Positions 8,710 through 40,537 of a DNA stretch of 64,000 nucleotides are shown here, piece by piece. The DNA is from Patescibacteria group bacterium (lineage in GTDB: Bacteria; Patescibacteriota; Microgenomatia; UBA1400; PJMF01): contig BOKX01000001.1 in NCBI GenBank assembly GCA_016861205.1, positions 895,835 through 959,834 of the forward strand. The letters are read 5' to 3'. The translations under genes were made by a program, and so were the position numbers. Within the stretch, counting starts at the first letter, position 1; each line of letters begins with the position of its first letter. The notes under the pieces were generated by a model that worked only from the letters and a program-made list of their open reading frames with translations, did no database searches and was not told the DNA's origin.

Positions 8710-8782
8710 AATAACCACATACACTCTACCTTGAAGTAGGTAAAGTGTGGTACTATTGTGCCGAACTATCGGTCTTTCGTCC

Positions 8783-10654
8783 ATGACTAATGCGCCACTG
8801 CCCACCCCGTCCCAACCTCCTGTCAAGACACCCCTGCCGCCCAGCGGGTTGGTACCTCAAGTTCAACCCGGAATGAAGCCGCCCACTCCGCCCGTGTCGC
8901 CAGCTCCAACTGCTCCAGCCAGTTTGCCTCCATTGCCAGTTAAGCCAGTTGCTGAAGCTGTCCCGCCAGTTGCTCCAGCCCCAGTGGCACCAACCGCACC
9001 GCTCCCACCTGTTGCGTCTGTTCCACCAGTTTCAGCTGCTCCGAGCATGCCGGCTGCCGTTGGTCAGACTCCAACTGGTTTGCCCCAAGCTGCCAGACCA
9101 ACTATGCCCCCTCCAGCCGCTGGTGCCCCGCCAGCCGGTTTGCCACCAGTTGCTGTGCCGGGAAAACCTGGCCCAGCCACACCGCCTCCGCCAAAGAATC
9201 CACCAACTGCCTCAGCTGGTGGAGCAGCTGGTAAGTCACCGATCGCGGCCGGACCCAAAAAATCAATTTTGCGCTTTTTGCCGTTTGTGGTGATTGCCCT
9301 ACTTATCATCGGAGTGGTTGGCTTTTTAGCGATGCGATTCCTGAATGGCGGTAGTAACACTCCCAGCACTTCTGGAACAAAAACGCCCAACCAAGGTGGG
9401 GCAGCAGCTAGTGCGAAACCTACCAACAAGCAGGTTACCCTGACCTATTGGGGTTTATGGGAACCGAGTGAAGTCATGACGCAAGTTTTGAAAGACTTCG
9501 AAACAGCCAACCCGGGCATCACCGTTCAGTATGTTAAACAATCTCCCAAGGACTACCGAGAGCGGTTACAAACCGCCATTGTCTCGGGCAATGGTCCAGA
9601 TTTGTTCCGTTTTCATGCCAGCTGGGTGCCAATGTTGAAAGCTGAGTTATCACCCATGCCGGGTAGTGTCATGTCTTCAGCTGAGTACCAGAAAACGTTC
9701 TATCCAGTGGCTGCCAAACAGCTCCAGCTGAATGGCCAGTTTGTGGGTATTCCGTTGATGTATGACGGGTTAGCTTTGTACTACAACAAGGACGTCTTGC
9801 AGACAGCTGGTGTGGAACCACCGACCACCTGGAGTGGATTGCGAACGTTAGCTACTCAGCTGACGGTGCGGACCAGTGGTGGCAGTATTGAACGAGCGGG
9901 ATTAGCAATTGGGACTGCTAGCAATGTTGATCACTTTTCAGACATTATTGGTTTGTTAATGCTCCAAAACGGCGCTGACTTAACCAATCCAACCACGGTT
10001 GAGGCGCGTGACGCTTTGACGTTCTACACCAACTTTGCCAAAGTTGACAAAGTTTGGGACAGTACCTTGCCAAACTCGACCACGGCTTTCGCGCGTGGCG
10101 ATGTGGCCATGATGTTTGCCCCAACTTGGCGTGTTCACGAGATTAAAGCTATGAATCCAAATCTAAACTTTGGGATCGCGCCGTTACCCAAACTGGCTGA
10201 GACCCAACTGGCTTGGGCTAGTTACTGGGCCGAAGGCGTCAGCGCCCAAAGTAAAAACAAGGACGATTCTTGGAAGTTGCTTAAGTACTTGAGTTCGCCA
10301 GAGATTATGCAGAAGCTGTATTCTTCCCAAAGCCAAGTGCGCAGTTTTGGTGAGCCCTACTCTCGAGTGGATTTAGCAACGCAGCTGGCTGATGATCCAT
10401 ACGTAGCTCCATATCTGAGCGATGCGCCAGCGGCCCAAGGTTGGTACCTGAGTTCCAACACGTTTGATAACGGTATCAACGACCAGATCATCAAGTACTA
10501 CGAAGATGCCATTACGGCAGTCGCAGTGAACAGTCGAACGGTTTCTGATGTGGTGACCACTCTTGATCAAGGGGTGAAACAAGTTCTGCGTCAATTTGGG
10601 GTGCCGGTTACTTCGACTGGATCGACAACCACTGGTGGAACCACCGGCCGTTAG
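8783..10654 (+). CDS. Extracellular solute-binding protein (family 1-like ABC substrate-binding protein) with a Pro-rich N-terminal linker and a TM anchor; orphan (no permease or ATPase nearby)
   Basis: Body pattern ...TLTYWGLWEPSEVMTQVLKDFETANPGITVQYVKQ...GPDLFRFHASWVPML...VGIPLMYDGLALYYNKDVL... is typical of SBP_bac_1. Roughly 150 aa of PPxP repeats, then the hydrophobic helix FLPFVVIALLIIGVVGFLAM. The ATG at 8783 (MTNAPLP...) is preferred over the GTG at 8747. Confidence 0.7.
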   Translation: MTNAPLPTPSQPPVKTPLPPSGLVPQVQPGMKPPTPPVSPAPTAPASLPPLPVKPVAEAVPPVAPAPVAPTAPLPPVASVPPVSAAPSMPAAVGQTPTGLPQAARPTMPPPAAGAPPAGLPPVAVPGKPGPATPPPPKNPPTASAGGAAGKSPIAAGPKKSILRFLPFVVIALLIIGVVGFLAMRFLNGGSNTPSTSGTKTPNQGGAAASAKPTNKQVTLTYWGLWEPSEVMTQVLKDFETANPGITVQYVKQSPKDYRERLQTAIVSGNGPDLFRFHASWVPMLKAELSPMPGSVMSSAEYQKTFYPVAAKQLQLNGQFVGIPLMYDGLALYYNKDVLQTAGVEPPTTWSGLRTLATQLTVRTSGGSIERAGLAIGTASNVDHFSDIIGLLMLQNGADLTNPTTVEARDALTFYTNFAKVDKVWDSTLPNSTTAFARGDVAMMFAPTWRVHEIKAMNPNLNFGIAPLPKLAETQLAWASYWAEGVSAQSKNKDDSWKLLKYLSSPEIMQKLYSSQSQVRSFGEPYSRVDLATQLADDPYVAPYLSDAPAAQGWYLSSNTFDNGINDQIIKYYEDAITAVAVNSRTVSDVVTTLDQGVKQVLRQFGVPVTSTGSTTTGGTTGR

Positions 10655-10718: not shown

Positions 10719-11618
10719 ATGGCATCGTTATCGACCCAAGTTTTAGCGACCGTGGCCTACTGCGATCAGTTTCAGTTTCCTTTGACGCTCAAAGAAATTC
10801 ATTGGCGGTTGGTGTGGCAACCAGCGTCATCCAAGTCAAAGCCAGAGCAAGTTCCATCGTTAGCCATGGTGCGAACAGCGGTGGAGAGCCTAGTCAAACA
10901 TGGCCAGCTGGCTCGACAAGGCTTGTACTTTCAGTTGGCCAGCTCGCCAAACTGGCAACTGACTCGAGACAGACGTACCAAGGAGAGTGAGCGTAAGTGG
11001 AGTTCTGCTCTGGAGTTAGTGGCTCAAGCCAAGCGGATTCCTTGGATACAAGGAATAGCGGTGACTGGTTCACTGGCGATGAACAATGCCCAGCCAGACG
11101 CTGATATCGATTTTATGATCGTGACCGAGCCAGGCCGTTTGTGGCTGACTCGCTTGTGGGTTACCCTGTTAGCCGTTCGAGCTGGTCGGCGCCGATCTTG
11201 GCACGCTGAAGAGCCCGAGAGTTGGTGTTTTAATCTATGGCTCGACAGCGATCACTTGGCCATGCCCAAAACCCTACAGTCTGTGTATGGCGCGTACGAA
11301 GTAGTGCAGGCAGAGTGGGTGTTTGATCGAGCTCAGATAGCAGCTCGTTTTTACGCGGCGAACAGTTGGATTAAAAACTGGTTGCCAGCCGCGAGTGCTG
11401 ATTTGTTGGGGGAGAAAGAACCTGTGCCGGTGAGGCCACCTGCCGCAAATCCAATCTTAAACTGGTTGGAAAAAGTTGTTTTTAGCTGGCAATTCCACTA
11501 CATGAAACCCCACATGACTCGAGAAAGAGTGGGGGAGAGTTGGGCATTTTTTCATCCGCGTGACACCAAAAAACAAGTTGAGGCGGCTTGGCGAAGAGCT
11601 TGGAAGGATACACCATGA
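10719..11618 (+). CDS. Pol-beta-superfamily nucleotidyltransferase domain protein
   Basis: Minimal nucleotidyltransferase motif GS-x9-DxD (VTGSLAMNNAQPDADIDFMIV). No other recognisable domains. Confidence 0.55.
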   Translation: MASLSTQVLATVAYCDQFQFPLTLKEIHWRLVWQPASSKSKPEQVPSLAMVRTAVESLVKHGQLARQGLYFQLASSPNWQLTRDRRTKESERKWSSALELVAQAKRIPWIQGIAVTGSLAMNNAQPDADIDFMIVTEPGRLWLTRLWVTLLAVRAGRRRSWHAEEPESWCFNLWLDSDHLAMPKTLQSVYGAYEVVQAEWVFDRAQIAARFYAANSWIKNWLPAASADLLGEKEPVPVRPPAANPILNWLEKVVFSWQFHYMKPHMTRERVGESWAFFHPRDTKKQVEAAWRRAWKDTP

Positions 11619-12094
11619 CGACTGAATACCATTTTTTAACACCAGATTTAACCCAAGCTCTACAAGCAGCAAGGAGTAGGGGAGAGGTTGTGGTGCTAGT
11701 GACAGGAGTTTTTGATGTCCTTCATGAGGAGCATGTGGCTTTTTTGCGAAAAGCCAAAGCGTTGGGTTGGTTGTTGGTTGGGGTTGAGTCTGATGTGCGA
11801 GTTGCTGAAATGAAAGGGCCATCCCGGCCTGTTAACCCAGCCCAGAGACGGGTATCGACACTTGAAGAACTGCAGATTGCTGATGCTGTGTTTGTATTGC
11901 CAGATCACTTCAACACGCCAGCAGCTCATGAAGCGTTAATCGCCGAAGTTCGCCCGCGTTACTTGGCAGTGTCTGCTCATACGGCTCACCTCGATAAAAA
12001 ACAGGCGATTTTAGCGAAACATGGTGGAGAAGTTAAAGTTGTGCATGAGCACAACCCTGCTGTTTCCAGCACAATTTTGTTGGCTCAAGGTTGA
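11615..12094 (+). CDS. RfaE domain II-like heptose-1-phosphate adenylyltransferase/cytidylyltransferase-fold protein
   Basis: HxGH-type motif VTGVFDVLHEEHVAFL. Strong resemblance to the HldE/RfaE C-terminal domain (KGPSRPVNPAQRRVSTLEELQIADAVFVL...GGEVKVV...SSTIL versus [29 protein letters not shown]...GGEVLVL...STTNI). The ATG at 11615 overlaps the upstream stop as ATGA, indicating translational coupling; the ORF track start at 11588 is the alternative. Confidence 0.7.
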   Translation: MTTEYHFLTPDLTQALQAARSRGEVVVLVTGVFDVLHEEHVAFLRKAKALGWLLVGVESDVRVAEMKGPSRPVNPAQRRVSTLEELQIADAVFVLPDHFNTPAAHEALIAEVRPRYLAVSAHTAHLDKKQAILAKHGGEVKVVHEHNPAVSSTILLAQG

Positions 12095-12139
12095 CCGCAC
12101 GTTCTTGCTATACTGAGGTAACACAATACGGGAGGTGGT

Positions 12140-12466
12140 ATGCAACTCACACGACACGCGAGCTTAGTTGTTTTGGCAGTAGCGATGAGTGGCGCGCTCT
12201 TGACTGGTTGTGGTTTGACAAAAACAACGACACCGGCTGCTCAGCCAGCGACAGGTGGGGCCCCTGCCGCCGAACAAAAAGTGGGAGATACCACTAAAGT
12301 TGGCATTGTGTCAGAAAGTAGTGGCCGCTTTTACCTCAATGTGACTGGACAACCACCCCAAGAAATCGATAGTTACAGCGTCGACCTATCTGGGTATGTG
12401 GGACAGTCGGTGACTGTGACTGGTCAGTTTAGTGGCAATACCTTATTTGTTGGGAGTATCAAATAA
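12140..12466 (+). CDS. Small lipoprotein (lipobox LLTGC)
   Basis: Signal peptide MQLTRHASLVVLAVAMSGALLTGCGL with a lipobox Cys. 108 aa. Confidence 0.6.
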   Translation: MQLTRHASLVVLAVAMSGALLTGCGLTKTTTPAAQPATGGAPAAEQKVGDTTKVGIVSESSGRFYLNVTGQPPQEIDSYSVDLSGYVGQSVTVTGQFSGNTLFVGSIK

Positions 12467-12467
12467 T

Positions 12468-13559
12468 ATGGCCCAGCCGCAGTGGCAATTTGGCATTGGG
12501 ACAGTGGTGACCACCATCGGCCTGTTGGTAACGGGGTGGTGGTTGATGCTGGTGGTGACACCCGGCCAAGCGGCTGGTTGGCAGCAACGGCTGGAGCTGA
12601 CCATTCGTGAGTGGCGGCTCAGTTTGCCAGGGGATAAATTGGGTGCCGAAGTGCTGCAGGTTGCCGGACATCACCTGGCTGAGTACCCGATTGAAGACCT
12701 TTCGTTTGAACTGTCAGCTACCATAATTGATGCTGATACTCAGTCAGTTGTCACAACCGAATCGAGTGCACACGGAATGGTGATGTGGCCAGTTGGTGGG
12801 CAGCCATTTCAGTTGGACTTAATGGGCCAGTCAAAGTGGGAGTTGCAAGGTTTGACCTTTGAGCCACAAGGCCAATTTAAAGCTGATCATCATAATCTGT
12901 ATCTCAAGTTGAAGGAGCCAATTTGGCCTGTTAAGGGTTTTTATGTTCTGGCAGAGGATTGGGTGGCGTGGCCGTTGCCAGTGGCTGGGCTGGGTAAGAT
13001 GAGTAGTTTTGACTGGACCCAACTTGTGACCCAGTTGGCGTGGTCGCCAGCAGAGAGTGTGGTGGTGGGACCAGAACGACTGTTGCGAACAACAGCCACG
13101 GTATCAGCTGAACAGCTTCAAGCTTGGCTTGGTGACACTCAATCAATTCGATTTCAACCCACGACCGTGACCATTTGGGTTCAGCCAGGAACCTGGGCTG
13201 TCCGCCAAGTTGAGGTGCCCTTTCAGGTAGCTTTTGTACTACCGCCTGTTGGGGTAGGTCAGTCGGACCAGCCGTTTATTCAAACCGACACCTGGCAAAC
13301 TGCCAAGGGCACTTTGAGAGTCATGATTAAACCGACGGCCAACTTTACCCCGATTTCTTTTCCGACTGCCCCACAACGGATCGGTGACTTTTGGCAGCCG
13401 CTGGAGCCGCCGGTGGAAAGTTCTGATAGTGGTGCTGTGTTGGGGGTTGAGCTGCGAGCGCCGGGTCAACCGAACTCACGTCCAACTGAGTTGCCGTTTC
13501 TGTCCACTTGGCAGAAAAACCTGTTGCGCGTCCATGGTTTTGTGGTCGACGAGCGCTAG
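12468..13559 (+). CDS. Hypothetical membrane-anchored protein
   Basis: Start ATG at 12468 (MAQPQWQ...), 1 nt after the upstream stop. N-terminal TM helix IGTVVTTIGLLVTGWWLMLVV. The remainder is Trp/Gln-rich and unrecognised. Confidence 0.5.
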   Translation: MAQPQWQFGIGTVVTTIGLLVTGWWLMLVVTPGQAAGWQQRLELTIREWRLSLPGDKLGAEVLQVAGHHLAEYPIEDLSFELSATIIDADTQSVVTTESSAHGMVMWPVGGQPFQLDLMGQSKWELQGLTFEPQGQFKADHHNLYLKLKEPIWPVKGFYVLAEDWVAWPLPVAGLGKMSSFDWTQLVTQLAWSPAESVVVGPERLLRTTATVSAEQLQAWLGDTQSIRFQPTTVTIWVQPGTWAVRQVEVPFQVAFVLPPVGVGQSDQPFIQTDTWQTAKGTLRVMIKPTANFTPISFPTAPQRIGDFWQPLEPPVESSDSGAVLGVELRAPGQPNSRPTELPFLSTWQKNLLRVHGFVVDER

Positions 13560-13580
13560 GCCCTGATCTATACTTGATGC

Positions 13581-14276
13581 ATGGCTGATATTTTCTCAGT
13601 TCGAGAGTTTGAGTTCCCGTATCGCTATAAATTTCCCGGTCAGGCGAGTAATGAGCACATATTGTTTGTGATTCGTGAAAACCCAGTTATGCTGACTGCC
13701 AGGAGAACAGCAGTGGTCATCGCAGCGATAGCGGTGCTGGTGGTGGGGTATTTGCTGGAACAGTTGCTGCTGAACTTGACTGGTCCAGTGGTGGCCAACT
13801 TGGTGATGGTCGTGAGCTTGGTGCTGGCACTTGGTTTCGGGGTGATTGGTTGGTGGTGGGTGAGCGTCCTGTGGCAGCGAAGCTTAGCGTTGGTCACGAC
13901 CATGCGGTTGATTAAGTTTATTTATACAACTCCGGCTAATCGGCACAGCCTGGCTTTACCGCTGGATATGATTGTCGACACGGGTGCCTACAGCAAGGGT
14001 TTCTTGCAGGCGTTTTTTAAACTGGGAACGTTCACAGCTCGATCGAGCGCCGCTAGTTCAGGGGCAGCCACCGACGATCCAGAGCGTGTAAACAAAAAGT
14101 ACTTTTACATTGAGAACATTGCCATTGCTGAAGATTTGCAACACTACGTATCCAAAGTTCTATATGCATTTCGCCACCATCATGACCAGCTGGCTACTTT
14201 CCGACCCTTCATTCCCCATCTTAAAGGCGACGCCCGCAAAGAATTCATGCGGCAGTATCCAGAGTACTGGAGCTAA
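13581..14276 (+). CDS. YdbS/YdbT-like membrane protein with a bacterial PH (bPH_2) domain
   Basis: Two TM helices (VVIAAIAVLVVGYLL; VVANLVMVVSLVLALGFGVIGWWWV), followed by the segment LVTTMRLIKF...LALPLDMIVDTGAYSKGFLQAFFKLGTF, which matches the bPH_2 fold pattern. Confidence 0.5.
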   Translation: MADIFSVREFEFPYRYKFPGQASNEHILFVIRENPVMLTARRTAVVIAAIAVLVVGYLLEQLLLNLTGPVVANLVMVVSLVLALGFGVIGWWWVSVLWQRSLALVTTMRLIKFIYTTPANRHSLALPLDMIVDTGAYSKGFLQAFFKLGTFTARSSAASSGAATDDPERVNKKYFYIENIAIAEDLQHYVSKVLYAFRHHHDQLATFRPFIPHLKGDARKEFMRQYPEYWS

Positions 14277-14281
14277 GTAAC

Positions 14282-17200
14282 ATGGTGACTGAACTATCTG
14301 CCAGCCCCCAGCCAAGTGAGTCAGTTGCAGCAACCAAGGTAGTGAAAGTTGAGTCACCTGTCGTTGTGCAGAGTACTGGCAAGCCCAGCGAGAGCCAACC
14401 TCAGACAGACTCCGATCCTGAGCTGAAGGAAGCCATCAGGGCATGGGCAGCTTGGGGAGATTTCGAGGCAAAAAAAGAAGTGATCTTCGGACTGACACAG
14501 AAGCTACTAACCACGCTTCGATACCACCGGCGCCATTTATCTGAAGATGAGTATCGAGAAAAGGTGAAAAAAGACGTTGTTCCACTTTTGCTGTTTCCCG
14601 ACAGGCAGCCCCTGCGCAGTTGGGCGGATGTGTTTGGAAGTGAAGATGCGGGCCGGTTGTTTCCTTCCTCGACCGATCGGGAAGATAGAAATTACCGGTT
14701 GGTGCAGGCTGTTTTTTCAGACCCTGAAGTGCAAGCTTTGATTCCCCCCGATTTGCTGGTTGAGTCAATCAATCAGGAACTTGATCTCGGTGGTGACAAG
14801 CCCTGGCGAATGATGATGTTGCTGGTAGCAGAGTCGATGATGGCGACTCAGTTCTTTTTCTCGCCAGAACAGATCAATCAACCAGGCGGAGCCAAGCCGG
14901 TGCTGATGAGGGAACAACTGAATCCGCTCACGTACGCGTTAACAAAATGGTTCATGCAGAATGACGAACAAGCATTTTTTAAGTTGCAGTATGACTCTGA
15001 TGCTTTGCGGGTGGTGACGGCTTACGCTGATATCTACGGTTTTTTGGACCCTAGCACACCTGATGGTCGTGAGCGCCTCATGCGTCTCGACTATGCGGCC
15101 TTAAACATGCCCTGGTATCGTGATCACCGGGTGCAGCCCAAAATAACGTTTGAGTCAGGTGCCTTTCAAAAGACACAGTCACATTACCTTAAATCGCTCA
15201 AGAGAGTGCCTCAAAAAGTTGATGAGTACTTACGAGCCAAAAAGACAGAAGCTGAGCTTGTTTCACCAGGCTACTCCGCCGACTACGAAGCAAGAGTGAA
15301 ACACCAAGCAGAGTTGGGTAGGTCTAACTTAGAGTCGTTCCGAACTCGACGCAACCTTCGTCAAACACTCACTATGCTGTGGCAGCACTATCTTGGTCAA
15401 GAATGGGGTTTGGTTGAACGGGCTTTGAAGCCCCAGCCGAAGACGGGCGAGAAGTCTGCCACTCAACCAGCGATGCTGGCTATGCTCGAAATCGAGAAGT
15501 GCCTGCAACGAGAGCGCGACTCTTTTCACTCGATTTTTTTGCGCTTAGAACGCATCTTAGCTGAGCAGAGCAAACTAACATTTTCACACAAAATTGAAAA
15601 CAGAACCCACAGGGTAGCTGTGACCATGCTGCTAGTGGAGAGTTGTTACTTGATCGCTGTTGAAAACGCTCGAGCGGGGGACGCTGGGCGGCTCAATAGA
15701 ATTTACGGCCAATTTTTGGAGCGGTATGGGGGAAAAATTGACAAGCTGTGTGACATTGACCCTTTTGCCAATAGCCAAGTTGAGCCAAAGAAGCTTGGTG
15801 CGTTTGATACTGCCGATTACGAACGCCGCTTAGCACATGCAAACCAAGTTCTAAGAGCTTCTCCCAATGCTGGGTTTATTGATGCCGAGATGATGGAAAA
15901 CTATGCAGTTTATGAAACTCGAGTGAGAGCCATTCAGCAAATCATGAACCAGATGAGGCAACTGACTGCGGATAGCTACCAGGAGGAACGTTTTCAGAAA
16001 ACCGGCGACTACCTTGATTACTATCACTGGAAGCAACTGCCCGAGTTTAGTCGATTTGCATCTTGGCCATTTTTGAGATTACTCTTGCCGGCCATGATTA
16101 TCACTCTCAGTTCACCAATCGTTATTGGAGATGAGTACAGTGAAAGTTTGAGTAAACCGGTGCCAAACATGTTATTTGGCATTTCATTAGCGGTTGTTAT
16201 TACTTCAGGCTACTTTCTTTTTCTTGAGAGAAAACGCAAAGAACGGTTCATGAACTTAGACGTCTCGATGGTTGATGAGTTACGTCGGGTAAAAATTGAG
16301 GATGCTGACGCAGACGAAATGCTAGCTCGGGTTGCGCAAGCTGCTGAGACCGCGCAGGAAACTTTGATTGCAGGCGGTGATCGGCGAGACTTTCTGCGAT
16401 TTTTTAGCGAACAGTTAGTCGCGATCACAGCTATCATTGCGGTCATCACGGCTCTGTACTGGATGGGAACACAAGACAATTTGTTTGAGCTTGAAGACGC
16501 TCCGAAGCTGGCTAACGTACTCGGTGTTGGCGAATCAGAGGCGAAAGAAGTTAAACCCGAACAAGAAGAGGGTAGTTTTGGCGACGAGACTTTGGATGAG
16601 AGCGGATCTACAAACATAGAATCTTTGTCTGCGACGCTCAACATTGAGAATAAAGATTTTGTATCGCCACCACCCAGTATTCTTCTCAATTACCGCGGGT
16701 CAGAGCGACCGCGGTTTGCCGGTGGCAATGTTTGCACGGTACGGCCAGACCAGCCCAGACTTGAGTGTTCAGTCGGAGAGCAGTTGCCACCTGAGTTAGC
16801 AGCGATGCGAGTGGTTGAAGCTGATGACATGACCGAGTTCTCTTCAAGAGTCGAGAGTTATGTAAGCCAAGGGTTTTTAGTGCAGCAAGTAGGGCAGAAG
16901 AACACGTTCTTTGAACCCATAGCCCAAACCGTTCCTTATCAGTTGGTTGTTTTTCGAGGTGATGGCGCCAGTGGAAGCTTGGGTGTGCAGGTTTGGGAAT
17001 CTGGCTTGGTAGTAATTGAGGGTGAGTTTTATCGAGCGGCTTTAGTATCTCAAGTAACAGATGAGCAATCGAGCGTTTTGCCAATGACAGTTCCGGCTAG
17101 TGAGTCACCGAACTTGGATTGGGAGACCATTGCTACCGATCCCGAACTGCAGAACTTCAATGAACTGGTGGCTTTTGTACGTGGCCTGCTGGAGATGCGT

Positions 17201-18622
17201 GCCTCATATTTAGCAGAACGTAACCCGGAAGATATTCAAGAAGAGCTTCGTGCTGCATCTGGATCGCGGTCGTGGCTGAGTAACCGAGAAATCTTAGACC
17301 AAGTCACACTGTGGTTATCGAGTCGAGGTTATAGCTATGGGTTTGGGACGTTTAATCTGAATGAACACGCTACCTATGATTCCGCGCTGCGAGACTTGCT
17401 GGCCCAGTCCCATCTGGATTGTGACTCATGGTCGTTGCTGAGTATGTTGGCTGTTCGTGGTGCACAAACAGGCCAGCTTAACCCAAGTTTTCCGGTGTAT
17501 CTAAGATCTGGATTTGCTATTGATAGAACAACTTACCCGAGTGGCTGGATAGGCAATCAAGGGCACGTAGTTCAGTTGTATCAGGAGGTTGATGGTGAGT
17601 GGTATGTGTACGAGACTACACTGCCTGAAGCTGAGAACCAAGCTGAGGTGGTCGCAAATGATCACAACGTAGAGTTGTTGCTTGGGGCACTGGTTTCAGC
17701 CGGTTTGTCAGGCTCAGCGTTGCTTGGTGTTTTTGGGTATGTTGCCAGAGAACGGTTTAAACGTGGAAAACGGCAGCCATCTCGGCGCCGCAAGCCACCA
17801 ATTATTGATGCCCGGGCCCGGTCAGTTGTTCGGGTGACTGGCGAGGATTGGCCAGACGATCACGATCCCAAGGTGACGCCGCAGGAGGCCGAGCTGGTTT
17901 ATGGTGAAACACCAGTGGAACAGGAAGCTCCTCCAGTCCAACTGCCCGACGAAGTCAGCAAGCAGATTTTGCGCTTAGCCAACTTAGTTGAGAGTGTCAG
18001 CTTAGAGACGAAACCCGTAGTCGCCAGAACTCTTGAAGAACTATCGTCTTGGCTTCACCTCAATCACGCCGACTGGCAAACAATGCGTACCATCAGTGGT
18101 CAGCCGGACCTAACAAAAATTGTGGGAGTAGCCTACTCGAGTATTATGGAATCAGTGCGCCGAGTTGACCCACATAACTTCAAGATGCGTGACCACGGAC
18201 TGAGAGATCACTATCAATCACTTACTCGTCGGTACTTGGTTGAGCCTAGTCGGCCATGGGCTGACGTAATCGCTCGAGTAGCTCCCAAGGTAGAGCAAAG
18301 CAAAACCGTGCTGAACGATCCAGAGTGGTTGCAACTAGTTGGCCAGGCAGTGTGGGAACTAGAGCAACAACTACGCCAAACCGAAGAACAGCTGGTGGCT
18401 GAGCTCAACCTCGGCGCAGTTGATGCAACAGCGCAAACCGGTGTGGCTACCGAGAATGTTACCGAACAGCTGAAACTTGCCTTGGTCACTGCCCAACATG
18501 ACGCCCGTGAGGTACCTACTAAGGCATTAATGGCGCTCAAAGTTCGGGCGGCAGCTGATCTATGTCAAGCTCTCCTCGACTGGCTCGAAGCAGAGTGGAC
18601 AGCCAGGGGCTTTACTCAGTAG
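14282..18622 (+). CDS. Giant polytopic membrane protein (1446 aa) with a transglutaminase-like (papain-fold) Cys/His core in a predicted extracytoplasmic loop
   Basis: Intact 4.3-kb ORF. Hydrophobic helices near aa 590-640, ~720 and ~1115. Putative catalytic Cys at 17420-17422 (HLDCDSWSLLSMLAVRG) and His at 17564-17566 (GNQGHVVQLYQEVDGEWYVYETT). These resemble the transglutaminase-like core C...H...D pattern. Confidence 0.65.
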   Translation: MVTELSASPQPSESVAATKVVKVESPVVVQSTGKPSESQPQTDSDPELKEAIRAWAAWGDFEAKKEVIFGLTQKLLTTLRYHRRHLSEDEYREKVKKDVVPLLLFPDRQPLRSWADVFGSEDAGRLFPSSTDREDRNYRLVQAVFSDPEVQALIPPDLLVESINQELDLGGDKPWRMMMLLVAESMMATQFFFSPEQINQPGGAKPVLMREQLNPLTYALTKWFMQNDEQAFFKLQYDSDALRVVTAYADIYGFLDPSTPDGRERLMRLDYAALNMPWYRDHRVQPKITFESGAFQKTQSHYLKSLKRVPQKVDEYLRAKKTEAELVSPGYSADYEARVKHQAELGRSNLESFRTRRNLRQTLTMLWQHYLGQEWGLVERALKPQPKTGEKSATQPAMLAMLEIEKCLQRERDSFHSIFLRLERILAEQSKLTFSHKIENRTHRVAVTMLLVESCYLIAVENARAGDAGRLNRIYGQFLERYGGKIDKLCDIDPFANSQVEPKKLGAFDTADYERRLAHANQVLRASPNAGFIDAEMMENYAVYETRVRAIQQIMNQMRQLTADSYQEERFQKTGDYLDYYHWKQLPEFSRFASWPFLRLLLPAMIITLSSPIVIGDEYSESLSKPVPNMLFGISLAVVITSGYFLFLERKRKERFMNLDVSMVDELRRVKIEDADADEMLARVAQAAETAQETLIAGGDRRDFLRFFSEQLVAITAIIAVITALYWMGTQDNLFELEDAPKLANVLGVGESEAKEVKPEQEEGSFGDETLDESGSTNIESLSATLNIENKDFVSPPPSILLNYRGSERPRFAGGNVCTVRPDQPRLECSVGEQLPPELAAMRVVEADDMTEFSSRVESYVSQGFLVQQVGQKNTFFEPIAQTVPYQLVVFRGDGASGSLGVQVWESGLVVIEGEFYRAALVSQVTDEQSSVLPMTVPASESPNLDWETIATDPELQNFNELVAFVRGLLEMRASYLAERNPEDIQEELRAASGSRSWLSNREILDQVTLWLSSRGYSYGFGTFNLNEHATYDSALRDLLAQSHLDCDSWSLLSMLAVRGAQTGQLNPSFPVYLRSGFAIDRTTYPSGWIGNQGHVVQLYQEVDGEWYVYETTLPEAENQAEVVANDHNVELLLGALVSAGLSGSALLGVFGYVARERFKRGKRQPSRRRKPPIIDARARSVVRVTGEDWPDDHDPKVTPQEAELVYGETPVEQEAPPVQLPDEVSKQILRLANLVESVSLETKPVVARTLEELSSWLHLNHADWQTMRTISGQPDLTKIVGVAYSSIMESVRRVDPHNFKMRDHGLRDHYQSLTRRYLVEPSRPWADVIARVAPKVEQSKTVLNDPEWLQLVGQAVWELEQQLRQTEEQLVAELNLGAVDATAQTGVATENVTEQLKLALVTAQHDAREVPTKALMALKVRAAADLCQALLDWLEAEWTARGFTQ

Positions 18623-18631
18623 AATGGAGCT

Positions 18632-19042
18632 ATGGCCCGTTCTACCTCCTCCCAACAAGCGACAACCTGGCTAACCCAGTTATACTTTGTTTTGGCCAGC
18701 CTTCTGGGCTTGCTGTGTCTGGTGATTGGGGTGGCGTCTCTTGTTAACACGCTCCTGATGACCTATGTCGTCAAAGTCAAAGCCCCTCGCTACAGTATGC
18801 CGCCACAACCCTATGTGGAAGTTGCTAAGTTGGAAAAAACCACCGCGCTCACGCCAGATGAAAAAGAGGCCCTGACTCGGTGGCAACAGGACTACGAACT
18901 CTGGGAAAAAGAACAACGTGACTATGACTACGAAGCTGAAAATCGGCGTCGCTCACTAGCATGGTCAATTGCCTTGGTTATCACCGGGGCGCCCGTTTTT
19001 GCTCTGCATGCACCACGCGTGTTTGGTCGCCGCAAAGCGTAG
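18632..19042 (+). CDS. Small two-TM hypothetical membrane protein, last gene of the 12140-19042 operon
   Basis: Two TM helices (LYFVLASLLGLLCLVIGVASLV; LAWSIALVITGAPVFAL). A terminator follows. Confidence 0.5.
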   Translation: MARSTSSQQATTWLTQLYFVLASLLGLLCLVIGVASLVNTLLMTYVVKVKAPRYSMPPQPYVEVAKLEKTTALTPDEKEALTRWQQDYELWEKEQRDYDYEAENRRRSLAWSIALVITGAPVFALHAPRVFGRRKA

Positions 19043-20195: not shown

Positions 20196-20269
20196 GGGCC
20201 CTTAGCTCAGTTGGCTAGAGCGCCACATTTGCAATGTGGAGGCCAAGGGTTCGAGCCCCTTAGGGTCCA
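20196..20269 (+). tRNA. tRNA-Ala (anticodon UGC)
   Basis: Cloverleaf folds by eye. Acceptor stem GGGCCCU/AGGGUCC with discriminator A. D-arm GCTCAGTTGGCTAGAGC. Anticodon stem CCACA/TGTGG with loop TTTGCAA (anticodon TGC). T-arm GGTTCGAGCCC. No encoded CCA. Confidence 0.88.
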
Positions 20270-20480
20270 CAACTAACACAAGTCAAACACCGCTGACTGA
20301 ATTTCAGTTATCGCTGTTTGCTTTGTGCTCTACGGAGTGTCAAAGCAAAGTACCTGATTTTCAGGTGCTCCTTAACAAGTGAAGAAGAAGTCAGATCCAT
20401 GTGATTAGCATCACATGGATTAATAAACATACTTTGTTTATCTCAATTAATTTTATTTTTTGACTTAAGTAAAGTAGGTT

Positions 20481-23440
<2,960 letters not shown>

Positions 23441-23540: not shown

Positions 23541-23674
23541 GCGTTTGGTGCTGGTCTCTAGAGCGAGGTGGAACCAACTCTTCCCTTCCCGAACAGAGTC
23601 TTGAAACGCCTCAGCGGTGACAATAATTCCCGGGCAACTGGGTGTGAAGATAGCTCGAGGCCGGCACCAAGCGC
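23541..23674 (+). rRNA. rrf: 5S ribosomal RNA
   Basis: 5' GCGTTTGGTGCTGG pairs with 3' CCGGCACCAAGCGC. Internal CCCTTCCCGAACAGAG and AAACGCCTCAGCGGTGACAATAAT match conserved 5S loop C and helix IV regions. A T7 run (terminator) follows immediately. Confidence 0.75.
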
Positions 23675-24023: not shown

Positions 24024-27000
24024 CTAGATACCTAGATTTGCACCAGCCGGCATAGCCATGGGCTTTTCCATGACCAGAGACTGTTCTTGCGGCTTCTGGC
24101 GGGTGTCGAGTTGATCAAAACTCATGCCGGCGCCTTTTTGGACATAATCCGGATGTGTGACACTGAGCTGGTAAAGGCCTTTTGGTGCAAACAGTTGGTA
24201 TTTACCCCAGGAGTCAGTGATCGCGATAGCTGCGAGCTGATTAGCCTCGGCTCGTCCCAACCGGACCACCGCGCCTTTAATTGGTTGGCCAGCGGCAGTG
24301 GTAATCTTACCGCTGACAGCGGGAGGGGTCAGCCAGGTGCGTGCTTTCCAAGCTACTACAAGCGCGTTAGCAGCTGCAATTCCGATGTTAATTAATGATG
24401 GTGAAACTACGGCCATAACGATCGTAAAGGCGGATAATGGCAAGGCTACTTTGCCGAAGCTGAGACGAGTTGCCCAGCGTTGCCACCAGGGTAGGCGAGC
24501 TTCACTCTTCTGGCCAGGTTGGCGAGGGTCAACTGGTACCACAAACAACTGTTCTTCTCGAGCTGACTTAACACTGAACGGTTCACCCCGATAGAAATCG
24601 CGCAGGGTTTGGTAAGGTTGACGTGGGTGGCGACTGGGGAAACTATACTGCTGGTGGGCGGCCGCTAAGTTGTACGTGCCAGCCGGCAGTTTCACACCCT
24701 GGTACACACCTTTAGTGTCCGATACCACTGTCTCGGTGACGGGAGCTTCACCGGTTTTTGTTTCTTTGGTAACAGTCAGCAATGCAAATGGCACAGCCTC
24801 AAACTGTTGGCTGCCAAGGACCACTCCTTGAGGTGCATGGTGGGCTAAGAAGCCCATGGCTTGTAAGAAGCGAGTGAAAACGGTCCACCAAGATGGTTGG
24901 ACCACGGCCGCAGTGCTGGTGGCGGCTCCTACCGCCGAGCCAGCGGCAGCGCTGGCCCCACTTGCTACGGCTCCTCCTACCGCGCTTCCCACCGCTCCTG
25001 CGGCGGCAGTTACTGATCCAGCTGCGGCTACACTTGAGGCTATGACCGCCGTGGTCAAAGCCACAGAGGCAGCCACCGCGGTGGTGACAACAGCAGTGAT
25101 GACTATGAGTTCGGCTACAAGGGCGCTGACCGGGGCAACTGCTTTGGCTGCTTCAGTGACTGTTGCCACGATAGCTGCGACTTGGTTTGCGAGCGACTCG
25201 GTGGTGTCTTCAGTGGTTTCGCGAATGTCTTCAAGACTGGGCAAAGTCGGTGTAGGTGAGGGATCAACTGCGCCAATGTTGCCACCCTCACTGTCGAGTG
25301 GTTCTGTCGGTCCAGAGACGATGGGTGGGATTTCTCCTGGGGTGAGTACAGAGCCAAACGCGTTGTAAGAAAGATAGACAGTCTGGGTAGTGGTCTCATT
25401 ACCTGCATTGTCTCGAGAAATGATATTTACTCGATACCAACCATCAGTTAGTGGGAAGGGGGCGGCGACTGAGAAAGAGGCTGTCTTGGCGACGCCGTTC
25501 TCATCAGTCACGGACAGGTTATCAACATATGATGAGGCGTAGTCGGTGTAGACCGCACTGGGGCCCTGAGGGTCGACAGCATTCACCAGTTGTTGAATGA
25601 CCAAGCGAACTTTGTTCGGGCCGGCGGACACCTTGTCAAAGGTGTCTTGGCTACCGTTTGAGTTGTTGCGCGTGCTGCCTTCATATGGATCTCTGATTTG
25701 ACCCGAGAAGACCGGAATCCGGTTGAGCAAACTCATGGTGTACTCGCCACCGTTGGTGACTGAGCCAATGGTGTTGAGGCTGAGTCCATTGATGCTTGGC
25801 GCGGTGGTGTCGAGCTGAAACTCTGCCTGGACCGTCTTGAGGTTACCGGAGGTATCAAAAATATCAACTGTCCACTTGTGTTTACCCTGGGTGAGGCCAC
25901 CTTCGGTACCTAATTTTTTGAAGTAGACAGAGATCTCGTCGTTATTGGGGTCGCTGTCATTCTCATTGCGGAAAACAACTCGAACATTGTCATCGTCGCG
26001 CCAAACGTACTCGGCTGAGCCATTGCCATTGGCCGGGATATCACTGACCGAAAAGTTCCGGTTTTTGTCACCATCAAGTGTCACGGTGTAAGAGCCAACT
26101 CCACCCGTGGTGGTCGTTGATTTTGAGAAGGTGAGTGTTGGGGTGGTGTTGTTAATGGTTCCTGTTGCTGACTTGAAGTCAACACTGCCAGTGCCTTCCG
26201 CAGCGGGGGTCTCGCTGTCGCCAACTTGACTGATACCACCGGTGCCGGTCATGCCAGTAATGGCCCAGACCTGGAAGCCGTTAACAGTGGTGATGCTGGT
26301 ATCGGCATCTGCCTCAACTTTGGTGATGGCGCCAGCACAGTCTGCAGTCACTTGAGCCAGACTAGTGGCATTCGGACAGATGATGACTGACGTGTCACCA
26401 GCGGAGTAGGGAACATACAGCGTGTGGGTAGCGGCGGCACCGGGAGCTGAGGTCACATTTTCGATCACTGCTTTGCGATTGGTGGTGTCGACGTCACCAG
26501 CCACCGTTGACCAGTCTCGGTCGGTAGTTAGGTTGACCTCGATACTTGAGATGGGATAGCTATTGCCTGTATCAATAACTTGGACAGTTTCGGCACTATT
26601 GTTAACACCATTGCCGCTGCCGTAGGTGATGTTTGTGCCACTGGTAGTTTGAGCCTGGATTCCTGACAAATTGCGAATCTGATACAAACTCGCCAAGCGC
26701 TGAAAGAAGAAGAGGTTGGTTTCACCACTGCGGGTTTCTTCCCAGACTGCTCCCACGCTGCCAGTGCTGAGTCGAGCCATGGATGGTCGGCCAGTACCGC
26801 TATCCAGATCGAGGGTGGTGGTGGAGTCCCAGAGAAGTGTGCCATCGGTGCGGACGCCCTGTACAAAGTGGTGTTCAGCCACACTATCTGAAGCAATGAC
26901 AAAGATCCCGTTGTCACCATCTTCTTCCATCTCAATCAGACTGTTATGACCGAGCAGACTGATGGCACTCACGTCAGCTCCCCACACTGAAGTGAAAGAG

Positions 27001-28904
27001 TCGAAGTTATAGCGTTGGACCAAAACTTGTGTTTCGCCTTGAAACCAGGCCATGTACCAGGTATTGGCAGCGGTGCTACTGGTGTCCCGCTTAATGATGG
27101 CGCGATCGCCACTACTTGTAAAGTCATCTTCAACTTGAATAGCGGCACTCACGTCGCCAGGAGCGTAGATGCGGCGGGCCAGCAACTCGCTGGGGGTGGA
27201 GCTTTTGTGATACAGCACTGTCATGCCGCCGCCGTCATCAGGGACGTTGATCATGAATGGGAAAGAAGTGTCAACCTGAGCGCCGCTGTCAATGGAGACC
27301 CCATTTATAAAGCCTTGACTGATAGGATCATTGGGGTTGCCATCCTCACCCAAGCGGTAACCACGCAGGACATAGTCACTCGCCTCACCACGCTCGGCAA
27401 TGATGAAATAACCCATCGAGTCTGAGGCTGCTGACCAGAAGCCTCGCACATTGGAGATGAGAGAGAGCGGTGTGCCACCTGAACCCCATTGTTTTTGACC
27501 GTTGGTATTGAGGCGTTGACCCTCAATACTATCAGTATCAATATTGTGGGCAAAAACAGCAGCGCCATAGCCATCCATACCCAGAGTCAAGGTCATGTTG
27601 TCAGCATTATTTGAGTTCAGAGGGTTAAAAACCTGAACACCTTCGGTCAATGGTCCGGGCGTCGACAAGTTGAAAACAACCGTTCCCATCGACCAATCTC
27701 GAGCAGCAGCATAATCAGTACCTATGCCCCAACTGAAGGTTGTCGAGCCATCCGCATCGGTTGGCACGGTGTAGGTTGTGCTCACATGATCATAGTTTAG
27801 CCACAAGAAGTACAGTTCTGTGGCAGGTCGGGGAGAGTAGTTATTTACAAGTATGTCGTGCCAGGTGTTAATTTCATTTTCCGTGGTGAACTCACCCCAG
27901 GAAAGTGTCGACACAATAGCTTGATCGTTGAGTGTACTGTTGTCTGCAACAGTCGTAATGCCCGTTCCTGAAGGTCCACCACCTGTGCCACCATTAATAC
28001 AACTGGAAGAAGCAATAGGATCGGCAGCATCAACGTTGGTGAAGACATCAGCGGAAACATTGATGTCGGTTTCGCCAGTGACGCTATAGGTCACTGTTGA
28101 AGACACGACATCAGGGTTTGCTATGCCATAGAGCGAGACATGGGTGTAGTGGTCATTGGCAGCGTTGCTCCCAACATTACTACAGATTTCGGTTAACGGT
28201 GTGCCGTCCCAGAGCACATTATCAACCGAAGCCAAGCCATCGGTTGATTCGTAGGTAAGGGTGACATAAATGTATTGATCTACCGCTGTAACTTCGAGTG
28301 GAAGCGGATCAGAGTCGAAATAAGTGTGTGCATGTGAGCTGGTGACTACTCGACTATTTGACCACAGGAGGTCTCCAGTATTAAAGTCCAGCTTCTGAGC
28401 ATAGAACTCAGTATTATTGATTTGACCGTCGCGATTGGCCGACCAGGCAACGATCAAGTTGTTATCAGCATCTTTGACCGAGTCGGGGTCCCAGTCAGGA
28501 TACATGATGCCACCTGACCAACCGCCGGTAAAGAGAGTGGTGACCAAGACGCCACCTTCAGTCCAGAGAGCAGCGCCATCACTGTTGAAATGTTGAGCAT
28601 AAATATTGACGTCGGTGTTTATGCCATCGCGTTGCTCTTTCCAGACCATGTAGGCGCCACCATTGCCATCGGCAATCATCTTGGCAGGAGCGGAGTTGGC
28701 ATTGTAGGCTAGCGAGCCCCGAACATTAACGCCACCGTCCGGAGAAACCGGCACGCGAGTCACGACGGCCGCTGTCGCAGTGTTGACACTTGGCCCAATC
28801 AAAAGCCAAACCAGGCTAGCAAAAATAGCGAAGCGACGCCAAAGCTGATACCGAACTTTCCGCATAACTTTTTTACTATAACGCCTGGGTGTGGTGATAT
28901 ACAA
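24024..28904 (-). CDS. Giant cell-surface protein (1626 aa): N-terminal signal/anchor, large extracytoplasmic region, Ala/Val-rich TM cluster, two C-terminal carboxypeptidase-regulatory-like (CarboxypepD_reg) beta-sandwich domains
   Basis: N-terminus MRKVRYQLWRRFAIFASLVWLLIGPSVNTATAAV. Hydrophobic cluster AIVATVTEAAKAVAPVSALVAELIVITAVVTTAVAASVALTTAVIASSVAAAG. C-terminal ...KITTAAGQPIKGAVVRLG...ITDSWGKYQLFAPKGLYQLSVTHPDYV and ...TVVSDTKGVYQGVKLPAGTYNLAAAHQQY match the CarboxypepD_reg pattern. Confidence 0.75.
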   Translation of the reverse strand: MYITTPRRYSKKVMRKVRYQLWRRFAIFASLVWLLIGPSVNTATAAVVTRVPVSPDGGVNVRGSLAYNANSAPAKMIADGNGGAYMVWKEQRDGINTDVNIYAQHFNSDGAALWTEGGVLVTTLFTGGWSGGIMYPDWDPDSVKDADNNLIVAWSANRDGQINNTEFYAQKLDFNTGDLLWSNSRVVTSSHAHTYFDSDPLPLEVTAVDQYIYVTLTYESTDGLASVDNVLWDGTPLTEICSNVGSNAANDHYTHVSLYGIANPDVVSSTVTYSVTGETDINVSADVFTNVDAADPIASSSCINGGTGGGPSGTGITTVADNSTLNDQAIVSTLSWGEFTTENEINTWHDILVNNYSPRPATELYFLWLNYDHVSTTYTVPTDADGSTTFSWGIGTDYAAARDWSMGTVVFNLSTPGPLTEGVQVFNPLNSNNADNMTLTLGMDGYGAAVFAHNIDTDSIEGQRLNTNGQKQWGSGGTPLSLISNVRGFWSAASDSMGYFIIAERGEASDYVLRGYRLGEDGNPNDPISQGFINGVSIDSGAQVDTSFPFMINVPDDGGGMTVLYHKSSTPSELLARRIYAPGDVSAAIQVEDDFTSSGDRAIIKRDTSSTAANTWYMAWFQGETQVLVQRYNFDSFTSVWGADVSAISLLGHNSLIEMEEDGDNGIFVIASDSVAEHHFVQGVRTDGTLLWDSTTTLDLDSGTGRPSMARLSTGSVGAVWEETRSGETNLFFFQRLASLYQIRNLSGIQAQTTSGTNITYGSGNGVNNSAETVQVIDTGNSYPISSIEVNLTTDRDWSTVAGDVDTTNRKAVIENVTSAPGAAATHTLYVPYSAGDTSVIICPNATSLAQVTADCAGAITKVEADADTSITTVNGFQVWAITGMTGTGGISQVGDSETPAAEGTGSVDFKSATGTINNTTPTLTFSKSTTTTGGVGSYTVTLDGDKNRNFSVSDIPANGNGSAEYVWRDDDNVRVVFRNENDSDPNNDEISVYFKKLGTEGGLTQGKHKWTVDIFDTSGNLKTVQAEFQLDTTAPSINGLSLNTIGSVTNGGEYTMSLLNRIPVFSGQIRDPYEGSTRNNSNGSQDTFDKVSAGPNKVRLVIQQLVNAVDPQGPSAVYTDYASSYVDNLSVTDENGVAKTASFSVAAPFPLTDGWYRVNIISRDNAGNETTTQTVYLSYNAFGSVLTPGEIPPIVSGPTEPLDSEGGNIGAVDPSPTPTLPSLEDIRETTEDTTESLANQVAAIVATVTEAAKAVAPVSALVAELIVITAVVTTAVAASVALTTAVIASSVAAAGSVTAAAGAVGSAVGGAVASGASAAAGSAVGAATSTAAVVQPSWWTVFTRFLQAMGFLAHHAPQGVVLGSQQFEAVPFALLTVTKETKTGEAPVTETVVSDTKGVYQGVKLPAGTYNLAAAHQQYSFPSRHPRQPYQTLRDFYRGEPFSVKSAREEQLFVVPVDPRQPGQKSEARLPWWQRWATRLSFGKVALPLSAFTIVMAVVSPSLINIGIAAANALVVAWKARTWLTPPAVSGKITTAAGQPIKGAVVRLGRAEANQLAAIAITDSWGKYQLFAPKGLYQLSVTHPDYVQKGAGMSFDQLDTRQKPQEQSLVMEKPMAMPAGANLGI

Positions 28905-37007: not shown

Positions 37008-37036
37008 AGAAAAGTGAGGCTCCGGCCTCACTTTTT
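37008..37036. terminator. Bidirectional intrinsic terminator between convergent genes
   Basis: Stem GTGAGGC / GCCTCAC with loop TCCG, flanked by an A-run (GAAAAG) on the left and a T-run (TTTTT) on the right. It overlaps the stop codon of the minus-strand ATPase gene. Confidence 0.65.
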
Positions 37037-39667: not shown

Positions 39668-40537
39668 ATGAGCACCCTAATGTCACATTTTGCCGTTTAC
39701 TCGGCTCAAATCATCCGGATTCGCTTTCCAAACCTGCGCCAACGATTATTGGGTGAGGTAGTACTTAGAGTGGTAACTGAGCCGATGTGGCCAGTTTTGC
39801 CACCTGTCCAGGCTACCAAACCAGCTGCCGTAGCAGCTTTGCCACGTTCAGTCAGCACAACCTGGCTGTCTGGCCTAGCTACATGGAAGCGGCGAGTGGG
39901 CCTGTTCCTATCTGGAATTCTCATTGTGATTGCCTTGGTTACAACCAGTTTTTGGGCAATTCCTGCCGTTTATTATCATTTTTTTCCAGCTGAGTCGGTG
40001 GCGATTGTGCCAACTGAGAGTAGTACCCCATTGGGAGGTGACTTCACGGCTGGTGCACAATCTGAACAGGTTTTAGCGAGTTACTTACCACCTCAAGATG
40101 AAACTCTGCCAGAGGGGCAGTGGATTGTGATTCCCAGAATCGGAGTTCGCACTGAGTTGCAGGCTGACGCTCAACCAGAAGAAGCCTTGGCTACCGGAGT
40201 CTGGATGGTGCCGGGATATGGCTCACCAGGCGACAAGACCCAGCCAATGATTGTGGCGGCCCACCGGTTTGGTTGGAAGTGGTGGTGGGAGAGTGACTAC
40301 TGGAAGTACCATTCTTTCTACTTGCTGCCGGATCTAGAACCAGGTGACACAGTCGAGATCATCGCAGATCAGCGCAAGTGGGTTTACGAGATTTATGCAG
40401 GCGAAGAGGGTGAGGAAATCACTGATTATCAAGCTGACTTGATTATGTATACCTGTAAGTTTTTGAACTCTCCGTTGCGACACTTCCGTTATGCCCGGCT
40501 ACTCGATCCGACCCAAGACTCCCAGAGCTTGAATTGA
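39668..40537 (+). CDS. Sortase-family transpeptidase (class E-like) with an N-terminal TM anchor
   Basis: TM helix VGLFLSGILIVIALVTTSFWAI. Catalytic-His region MIVAAHRFG. TLxTC-like Cys motif DLIMYTCKF. Conserved Arg downstream (RHFRYARL). Confidence 0.65.
   Translation: MSTLMSHFAVYSAQIIRIRFPNLRQRLLGEVVLRVVTEPMWPVLPPVQATKPAAVAALPRSVSTTWLSGLATWKRRVGLFLSGILIVIALVTTSFWAIPAVYYHFFPAESVAIVPTESSTPLGGDFTAGAQSEQVLASYLPPQDETLPEGQWIVIPRIGVRTELQADAQPEEALATGVWMVPGYGSPGDKTQPMIVAAHRFGWKWWWESDYWKYHSFYLLPDLEPGDTVEIIADQRKWVYEIYAGEEGEEITDYQADLIMYTCKFLNSPLRHFRYARLLDPTQDSQSLN

Follow-up and report, generated by a model that had tools for sequence, protein, structure and literature searches.

In a 64,000-nucleotide window from a Patescibacteria group bacterium (contig BOKX01000001.1, positions 895,835 to 959,834), we analyzed the gene at 14282..18622 on the + strand of the open reading frame (ORF) list, which encodes a 1446-residue membrane protein with four transmembrane (TM) helices and a Cys/His domain. 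Residues 945-1121 are a real, conserved Cys/His domain with a predicted outward-facing location. This domain forms the conserved core of a small, lineage-restricted and unannotated family of giant polytopic membrane proteins, and our leading, though tentative, interpretation is that it is most likely a thiol enzyme of the papain-like type. The support for this interpretation comes from the invariant C1047 and H1095, the position of both at the conservation peak of the protein and at the start of a predicted helix and strand, motif parallels to transglutaminase-like cores, the predicted topology, and the operon in which the gene lies. Window coordinates of all features of this protein are on the + strand.

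The 1446-residue ORF is a real coding gene, since the differences between it and a 96%-identical copy comprise 101 synonymous and 65 non-synonymous codons. Logan contigs carry copies at 96% identity as well as the exact 1446-residue protein, which is also recorded in NCBI on a contig of 1,149,156 bp.

When 1.84 billion representative sequences were searched exhaustively with phmmer, with clusters counted at 50% identity, a family of five clusters emerged: that of the window protein and four others, P0002, P0003, P0004 and P0005. The four others were matched at 27-32% identity, and identity across the five clusters is 25-31%. A word-indexed homologue search matched solely the 96% copy (P0001), and a homologue search started from P0004 returned only P0004 itself. 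The same word-indexed approach with alignment A1 produced no candidates at E<=10 and missed even P0001, and thus says nothing about the absence of relatives. No further members were found among the GTDB genomes and JGI metagenomes with a back-translated peptide pattern and the DNA pattern for WDCEM...H.V.V[YF].EVD. One additional phmmer match, P0006, was rejected as a spurious repeat protein, as its match to the query is confined to six repeated hairpins. P0006 is a secreted protein of 564 residues that carries the hairpin GHLVSVYDDASGAWHVFDLT six times, and its N-terminus is NlpC/P60-like in look (YRMDCSG ... DHVVIFY). Because the P0006 match rests on hairpin repeats, the His hairpin of the target can be said to resemble a generic β-hairpin repeat.

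Alignment of the C-terminal loop domain across the five clusters (alignment A2) showed that 21 of its 177 columns are invariant; the invariant residues include D1046, C1047, R1059, Y1073, G1077, G1088, H1095, V1097, E1102, V1103, D1104, L1114 and P1115. The peak of conservation in the whole protein falls at residues 1040-1115, where mean identity is 33%, compared with 13-17% in the cytoplasmic regions. The domain (17114..17644) consists of a helical part followed by a Cys-helix and a three-strand core, as judged from alignment A2, the conservation profile and two structural models, and it carries the signature of the family. The protein as a whole evolves far faster than its operon neighbors, which are 41-69% identical between loci. 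At the P0002 locus, the 231-residue neighbor is 69% identical, the adenylyltransferase 55% and the lipoprotein 48%, while the giant protein is detectable by BLAST in the loop only, at 27% identity, its other parts having diverged past BLAST detection.

The Cys and His stretches noted in the sequence-only reading are both present in the ORF and both lie between TM3 and TM4. The first, HLDCDSWSLLSMLAVRG, begins at residue 1044 and contains Cys1047 (17420-17422), the candidate nucleophile, which is the sole Cys of the domain, invariant, and the first residue of a predicted helix. Arg1059 (17456..17458), twelve residues further on, is invariant in alignment A2; the same offset separates the Cys from the conserved Arg of the LRxxGIPAR motif in real transglutaminase-like cores, and hhalign pairs the two arginines. 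A strand with the sequence PVYLRSG (residues 1073-1079, 17498..17518), which contains the invariant Y1073 and G1077, is identified by the whole-loop model described below (model 1), alignment A2 and hhalign, and occupies the position equivalent to that of PARxvxGY in transglutaminase-like cores. The second stretch, GNQGHVV / GNQGHVVQLYQEVDGEWYVYETT, begins at residue 1091 and holds His1095 (17564-17566), the candidate general base, which is invariant, opens a predicted β-strand and lies 48 residues after the Cys. The invariant motif E1102-V1103-D1104 (17585..17593; alignment A2) is located in the turn between the model 1 strands 1095-1101 and 1107-1113; in the models it is too far along the strand to pair with the His, and its role is probably structural or ion-binding. 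We consequently rejected E1102 and D1104, which sit in the hairpin turn far from the His, as the third residue of a triad. A possible third residue is Glu1111 (17612-17614), 16 residues after the His. In alignment A2 the acid is a Glu at +16 in the window protein and an Asp at +15 in P0003, P0004 and P0005, and P0002 has neither. In real cores the spacing between His and acid is 16 in TgpA and 15 in the Protein Data Bank (PDB) entry 3ISR.

The helices were called from Kyte-Doolittle hydropathy peaks and their sidedness was assigned with the positive-inside rule. TM1 spans residues 597-615 (16070..16126, hydropathy peak 1.98). TM2 (residues 630-648, 16169..16225, peak 2.12) is followed by the basic stretch ERKRKERF, which the flanking charges place on the cytoplasmic side. 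TM3 (residues 712-730, 16415..16471, peak 2.02) leads into an acidic linker on the predicted outer side, with one Lys/Arg in the next 15 residues, and TM4 (residues 1132-1152, 17675..17737, peak 1.92) precedes ARERFKRGKRQPSRRRKPP, again predicted to be cytoplasmic from the flanking charges. Because basic clusters follow TM2 and TM4, the loop of about 400 residues between TM3 and TM4 (residues 731-1131, 16472..17674) is predicted to lie outside the cell, with the N-terminal ~590 and C-terminal ~290 residues in the cytoplasm. In the window protein both loop-side flanks, the one behind TM3 and the one ahead of TM4, are acidic with hardly any Lys or Arg. In the homologues P0002-P0005 a TM helix directly follows the Cys/His domain, with 6-8 Lys/Arg in the next 15 residues as opposed to 0-2 on the loop side, and the same sidedness is predicted for all four.

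These predictions agree with the extracytoplasmic location that the sequence-only reading had proposed for the loop. TM4, placed there near residue 1115, starts about 17 residues later, and the range given for the site (residues 1034-1160) extends over TM4 as well. The N-terminal α/β part of the loop (residues 800-944, 16679..17113) was delineated from alignment A1, its invariant columns and the secondary structure of model 1. It contains an invariant Cys pair, C818 (16733-16735) and C829 (16766-16768), identified from the same alignment, which is a probable disulfide and fits an oxidizing compartment.

Two AlphaFold2 models were calculated from shallow family alignments, one of the whole loop (residues 800-1128; predicted local distance difference test (pLDDT) score 62.7, predicted template modeling (pTM) score 0.49) and one of the C-terminal domain (residues 945-1121; pLDDT 64.1, pTM 0.63). 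In both of these low-confidence models a helix starts at Cys1047 and a strand starts at His1095; this strand pairs as a hairpin with residues 1107-1113. The secondary structure thus matches the earlier expectation of a Cys at a helix start and a His in a β-hairpin. The whole-loop model has an additional strand at residues 1073-1079. Confidence is low precisely in the segment that links the Cys helix to the His strand. The papain-like fold combines a helix with a four- to five-stranded antiparallel sheet, in which the Cys is at the helix N-terminus, the His on β2 and a polar residue on β3, and Cys-His dyads that lack a third residue are frequent in this core (PMC10318531). The order predicted here, helix, β1, β2 with the His and β3 with the polar residue, is that of the papain-like core, insofar as a low-confidence model can be read in this way.

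The layout of the domain is closest to that of the transglutaminase-like core (PF01841; 3ISR and the plasmid genes L007-L022). Both have the same order of elements, namely a helix, a conserved Tyr, a second helix, the Cys-helix, a strand, the His-strand and the acid-strand, and the key residues C, R+12, G[YF], H and D/E are collinear. The upstream helix and invariant Tyr of the window protein (ILDQVTLWLSSRGYSYG) parallel the aiydwv..i.Y motif of transglutaminase cores. The Cys opens a helix with the Arg exactly 12 residues later, as in the transglutaminase motif C....f..l.RalGIPAR, and the strand P-V-Y-L-R-S-G-F parallels P-A-R-x-V-x-G-Y, the shared form being P-x-[RY]-x-x-x-G-[YF]. The acid is at His+16 in both the window protein and TgpA, and at His+15 in both 3ISR and three homologue clusters. 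The two groups also differ. The invariant E-V-D turn of the window family has no counterpart in transglutaminases, and the strands that follow the DPT motif in bacterial transglutaminase-like proteins are absent, since TM4 starts 18 residues after the last core strand.

The nearest functional analogues appear to be TgpA (PMC3507681) and LapG (PMC3032545). TgpA (PA2873 of Pseudomonas aeruginosa; 6G49) is also a polytopic inner-membrane protein with a large outward loop between TM helices that contains a Cys/His/Asp core, and sets a precedent for transglutaminase domains placed in a periplasmic loop flanked by TM helices (PMC3507681). It shares with the window protein the Arg at Cys+12, the His-acid spacing of 16 and a PARxvxGY-type strand between the Cys and the His. 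TgpA, however, has a clear PF01841 domain, a five-TM N-terminal DUF3488 module and approximately 77 residues separating its core from the last TM helix, whereas the window protein matches neither DUF3488 nor PF01841, has 18 residues in the corresponding position, and has four TM helices with ~590 N-terminal and ~290 C-terminal cytoplasmic residues of unannotated type. LapG (4FGQ) acts outside the cytoplasm as a Cys-His-Asp enzyme and processes a cell-surface protein, the kind of role that we propose here; unlike the membrane-embedded window protein, it is soluble in the periplasm and is recruited by the receptor LapD (PMC3032545).

Several results weigh against a thiol-enzyme interpretation. 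When the protein was shuffled, a loose pattern (C, 35-60 residues, H, 14-16 residues, D/E) turned up in 61% of the resulting sequences, and in 23% when the loop alone was shuffled; the loose motif by itself is therefore at chance level. In the window family the Cys stands in a D-C-[DE] context ([LW]-D-C) in place of the G-x-C(-x-x-[FY]) of transglutaminases, the third residue varies (E+16, D+15 or none, as in P0002), and there are only three strands between the Cys helix and TM4 as against the canonical four or five. Searches of Pfam and NCBIfam gave no matches at E<=10 for the protein, a 267-residue fragment or any of the five members. Searched against PDB sequences, the protein and two profiles gave noise only, for example FabG. 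PADLOC did not match the target, and we rejected a phage or defence-system origin for want of PADLOC matches. No papain-like or transglutaminase structure emerged from Foldseek comparison of both models with the PDB and BFVD; the best E-values, 0.04-0.6, were all to unrelated folds, and the appearance of LapG in the list (E=3.5, TM-score 0.22) is noise.

Profile comparisons were equally negative at the level of the transglutaminase family. As a reference we assembled 18 real cores: 3ISR and TgpA (6G49), taken from PDB alignments, and 16 plasmid genes (L007-L022) found by tblastn, most of which are annotated as transglutaminase family or domain proteins. A custom hidden Markov model (HMM) of these cores, run with all filters off, scored the family domains at -0.2 to -1.4 bits, although in each member its best local alignments coincide with the Cys helix or the His strand. 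Comparison of the family with the transglutaminase profile by hhalign gave a score of 12.2 (P=0.23). The null distribution from 150 column-shuffled family alignments was 10.8±2.0, with 36 of the 150 reaching 12.2, and true transglutaminase members left out of the profile scored 56-122. The alignment itself runs collinearly through 95 of the 97 core columns, matching C with C, R with R, G[YF] with G[YF] and H with H. With no Pfam match, an HMM score of about zero bits and an hhalign score at shuffle level, we reject membership of the domain in the Transglut_core (PF01841) family. The hhalign set-up is blind to relations at the level of the clan, as the transglutaminase core scores only 10.5 against NlpC/P60, and even 3ISR and TgpA are barely detectable from each other by phmmer (E=0.36). 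A distant relation at the level of the papain clan may thus still hold, and the domain may be enzymatically active.

The sequence-only reading had described a membrane-tethered transglutaminase or cysteine protease with the spacing and flanking pattern of the transglutaminase-like core. The location and a thiol-enzyme-like layout are supported, as is the order of motifs, which parallels 3ISR and TgpA; the spacing in its loose form is common in shuffled sequences, and membership in the transglutaminase or papain families finds no support from Pfam, the HMM or hhalign. An HMM search with Transglut_core and related Pfam families, which that reading had suggested, returned no match, even at E<=10, and the structure models had no Foldseek match. 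The absence of a transglutaminase or papain-like hit or fold, which it had named as telling against itself, is accordingly what was observed.

The site is lifted above chance because the Cys, the Arg at +12, the Gly-[FY] strand and the His are invariant across the five clusters. A fuller pattern (C-x11-R ... G[FYW] ... H-x14-15-[DE]) turned up in 0.46% of the shuffled proteins and 0.19% of the shuffled loops, figures that are optimistic as the pattern was defined after the sequence had been seen. That the domain is simply a conserved structural unit with a chance resemblance to an active site would account for the frequency of the loose motif in shuffles and for the uniformly negative homology and fold tests. 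We nevertheless consider this highly improbable, as Cys and His are rare residues and both are invariant across ~27% identity at the conservation peak of the protein. A role in which the Cys and His are not catalytic, and together with D1046, E1102 and D1104 bind a metal ion or stabilize a ligand-binding or sensor domain that signals to the cytoplasmic regions, deserves more weight and is the main rival, although we regard it as unlikely. The invariant D-C-[DE] ... H ... E-V-D set is rich in classical metal ligands, no enzyme family was detectable by any method used, the combination of an outside domain, TM helices and ~880 cytoplasmic residues resembles receptors or scaffolds more than secreted enzymes, and the His hairpin is similar to the generic repeated β-hairpin of P0006. 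Yet a lone, unpaired, invariant Cys outside the cell is typical of nucleophiles, a Cys at a helix N-terminus and a His at a strand start have the geometry of a thiol enzyme in the models, and E1102 and D1104 are modeled at the far end of the hairpin from the His, so that they would not share a common site with it.

If the domain is a thiol enzyme, its ancestry can be read in more than one way. It could be an extremely divergent but true Transglut_core-type homologue with a Cys-His-Asp/Glu triad, acting as a protease or a cross-linker. This narrower form of our preferred interpretation is unlikely: the motifs collinear with those of 3ISR, TgpA and the 16 plasmid-borne proteins (upstream helix and Tyr, C, R+12, G[YF], H and the acid at +15/16), the placement of the best custom HMM alignments, the architecture analogous to that of TgpA and the near-invisibility of 3ISR and TgpA to each other all speak for it, but the scores are those of the shuffled controls when true left-out members reach 56-122, none of the five members has a Pfam match, no fold match to transglutaminase-like PDB structures was obtained, and the post-DPT strands are missing, with TM4 following after 18 residues. 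Assignment to a different family of the papain clan, such as the NlpC/P60 or CHAP-type wall amidases or endopeptidases, in which case the domain would trim peptidoglycan beside the membrane, is very unlikely. NlpC/P60 (C40) endopeptidases share with the window domain the Cys-helix/His-strand layout and a similar Cys-His spacing, 48 being typical of them; D-C-x and G-H-V-x-[VL]-[YF] recall their DCSG and HVGIY motifs, and the window contains wall-related genes (VanW, LysM-M23 and sortase). The window domain, however, lacks or does not conserve the GD[LI] strand that precedes the His and the polar residue at His+11/12, neither NlpC/P60 (PF00877) nor CHAP (PF05257) gave a Pfam match, and hhalign against eight real NlpC/P60 domains scored 13.6. 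The null for this comparison was 11.4±2.6, 17 of 100 shuffles scored at least 13.6, and the alignment left the His residues unpaired. It is also improbable, though less so than the NlpC/P60 assignment, that the domain is a new extracytoplasmic Cys-His catalytic module, non-homologous to papain-like and transglutaminase families, housed in giant, fast-evolving membrane proteins restricted to one small-genome (~1.15 Mb), probably episymbiotic lineage, where it would modify the cell's own or a host surface and the ~880 cytoplasmic residues would couple its activity to the cell interior.

Under the papain-like thiol-enzyme interpretation that we favor, the domain would lie on the outer side of the membrane, immediately ahead of the last TM helix. 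Cys1047, at the helix N-terminus, would be the nucleophile, activated by the helix dipole and by His1095, which at the start of the next-but-one strand would serve as the general base. The His may be oriented by an acid located on the next strand, which is Glu1111 in the window protein and the Asp at His+15 in most relatives. Such an enzyme would act at the cell surface, where it would cleave or cross-link proteins or wall polymers, and the lipoprotein or the anchored protein, whose genes are co-transcribed with it, could be among its substrates.

The gene is the sixth of seven tightly spaced + strand genes at 10719-19042. The five upstream genes (10719..14276, +), assigned with Pfam and NCBIfam, encode in order a nucleotidyltransferase-like protein (299 residues), an RfaE-domain-II-like sugar-phosphate adenylyltransferase (168 residues), a lipoprotein (108 residues), an N-anchored protein (375 residues) and a 2-TM protein (231 residues). 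The last gene (18632..19042, +) starts 10 nucleotides past the stop codon of the target and encodes a DUF5671-like small membrane protein of 136 residues (PF18920, E=2.6e-8) that is syntenic in the loci L001-L003. The operon thus encodes an envelope-type sugar-nucleotide transferase, a lipoprotein and an anchored extracellular protein, and the same gene order is found beside the distant homologues P0002 and P0004. In locus L005 (3900-14416) an extra gene of 772 residues is placed before the giant gene, and in L004 (295-8797) both transferase genes are fused into one encoding a protein of 536 residues.

Other genes in the window encode LeuRS, L25, PGK, Obg, Rho, VanW, sortase, pilins, LysM-M23, DUF4012, a VirD4-like ATPase and two more giant ORFs. 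Taken with the 1.15-Mb contig, the gene content, notably DUF4012, DUF5671, VanW, sortase and pilins, suggests a bacterium with a small genome that resembles the candidate phyla radiation (CPR). A VirD4/TraG-like coupling ATPase (37028-39112, -), a sortase (39668-40537, +), two type IV pilin-like genes (46680-47950, +) and a LysM-M23 peptidase (42201-43328, +) make up a set of surface and DNA-transfer genes that is typical of small-genome, episymbiont-like bacteria. The ORF of 1626 residues at 24024-28904 (-), with a CarboxypepD_reg match and a weak Big_13 match, probably encodes a large surface protein. The other, of 4477 residues (50203-63636, -), has as its sole Pfam match a phage-integrase SAM-like N-terminal domain at residues 92-168. 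A 992-residue DUF4012 protein is encoded at 127-3105 (+) and a VanW protein with PG_binding_4 at 6919-8826 (-); the VanW-SBP-LeuRS arrangement is syntenic in L002 and L005 too. Downstream of the operon lie tRNA-Ala(tgc) (20196-20270), a complete 23S rRNA gene (20499-23423) and a 5S rRNA gene (23550-23666), all on the + strand. No 16S rRNA gene is present upstream of the 23S-5S pair, where an ORF of 174 residues ends at 20023, and the 16S gene appears to be unlinked from this unit.

The novelty of these findings is at most that of an unannotated Cys/His domain family in a new architecture, and the practical yield is modest: a defined domain of 177 residues and a conserved seven-gene operon. Were the domain not an enzyme, it would simply be a conserved orphan domain. 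Should it prove to be an active thiol enzyme, the transglutaminase/papain-like world would gain a family missed by current profile libraries. Attachment to other cells is thought to be controlled by surface proteins in organisms with very small genomes, and an active enzyme would here mean that a giant protein with no other annotation, in a host whose genome is only ~1.15 Mb, exposes a catalytic site at the surface.

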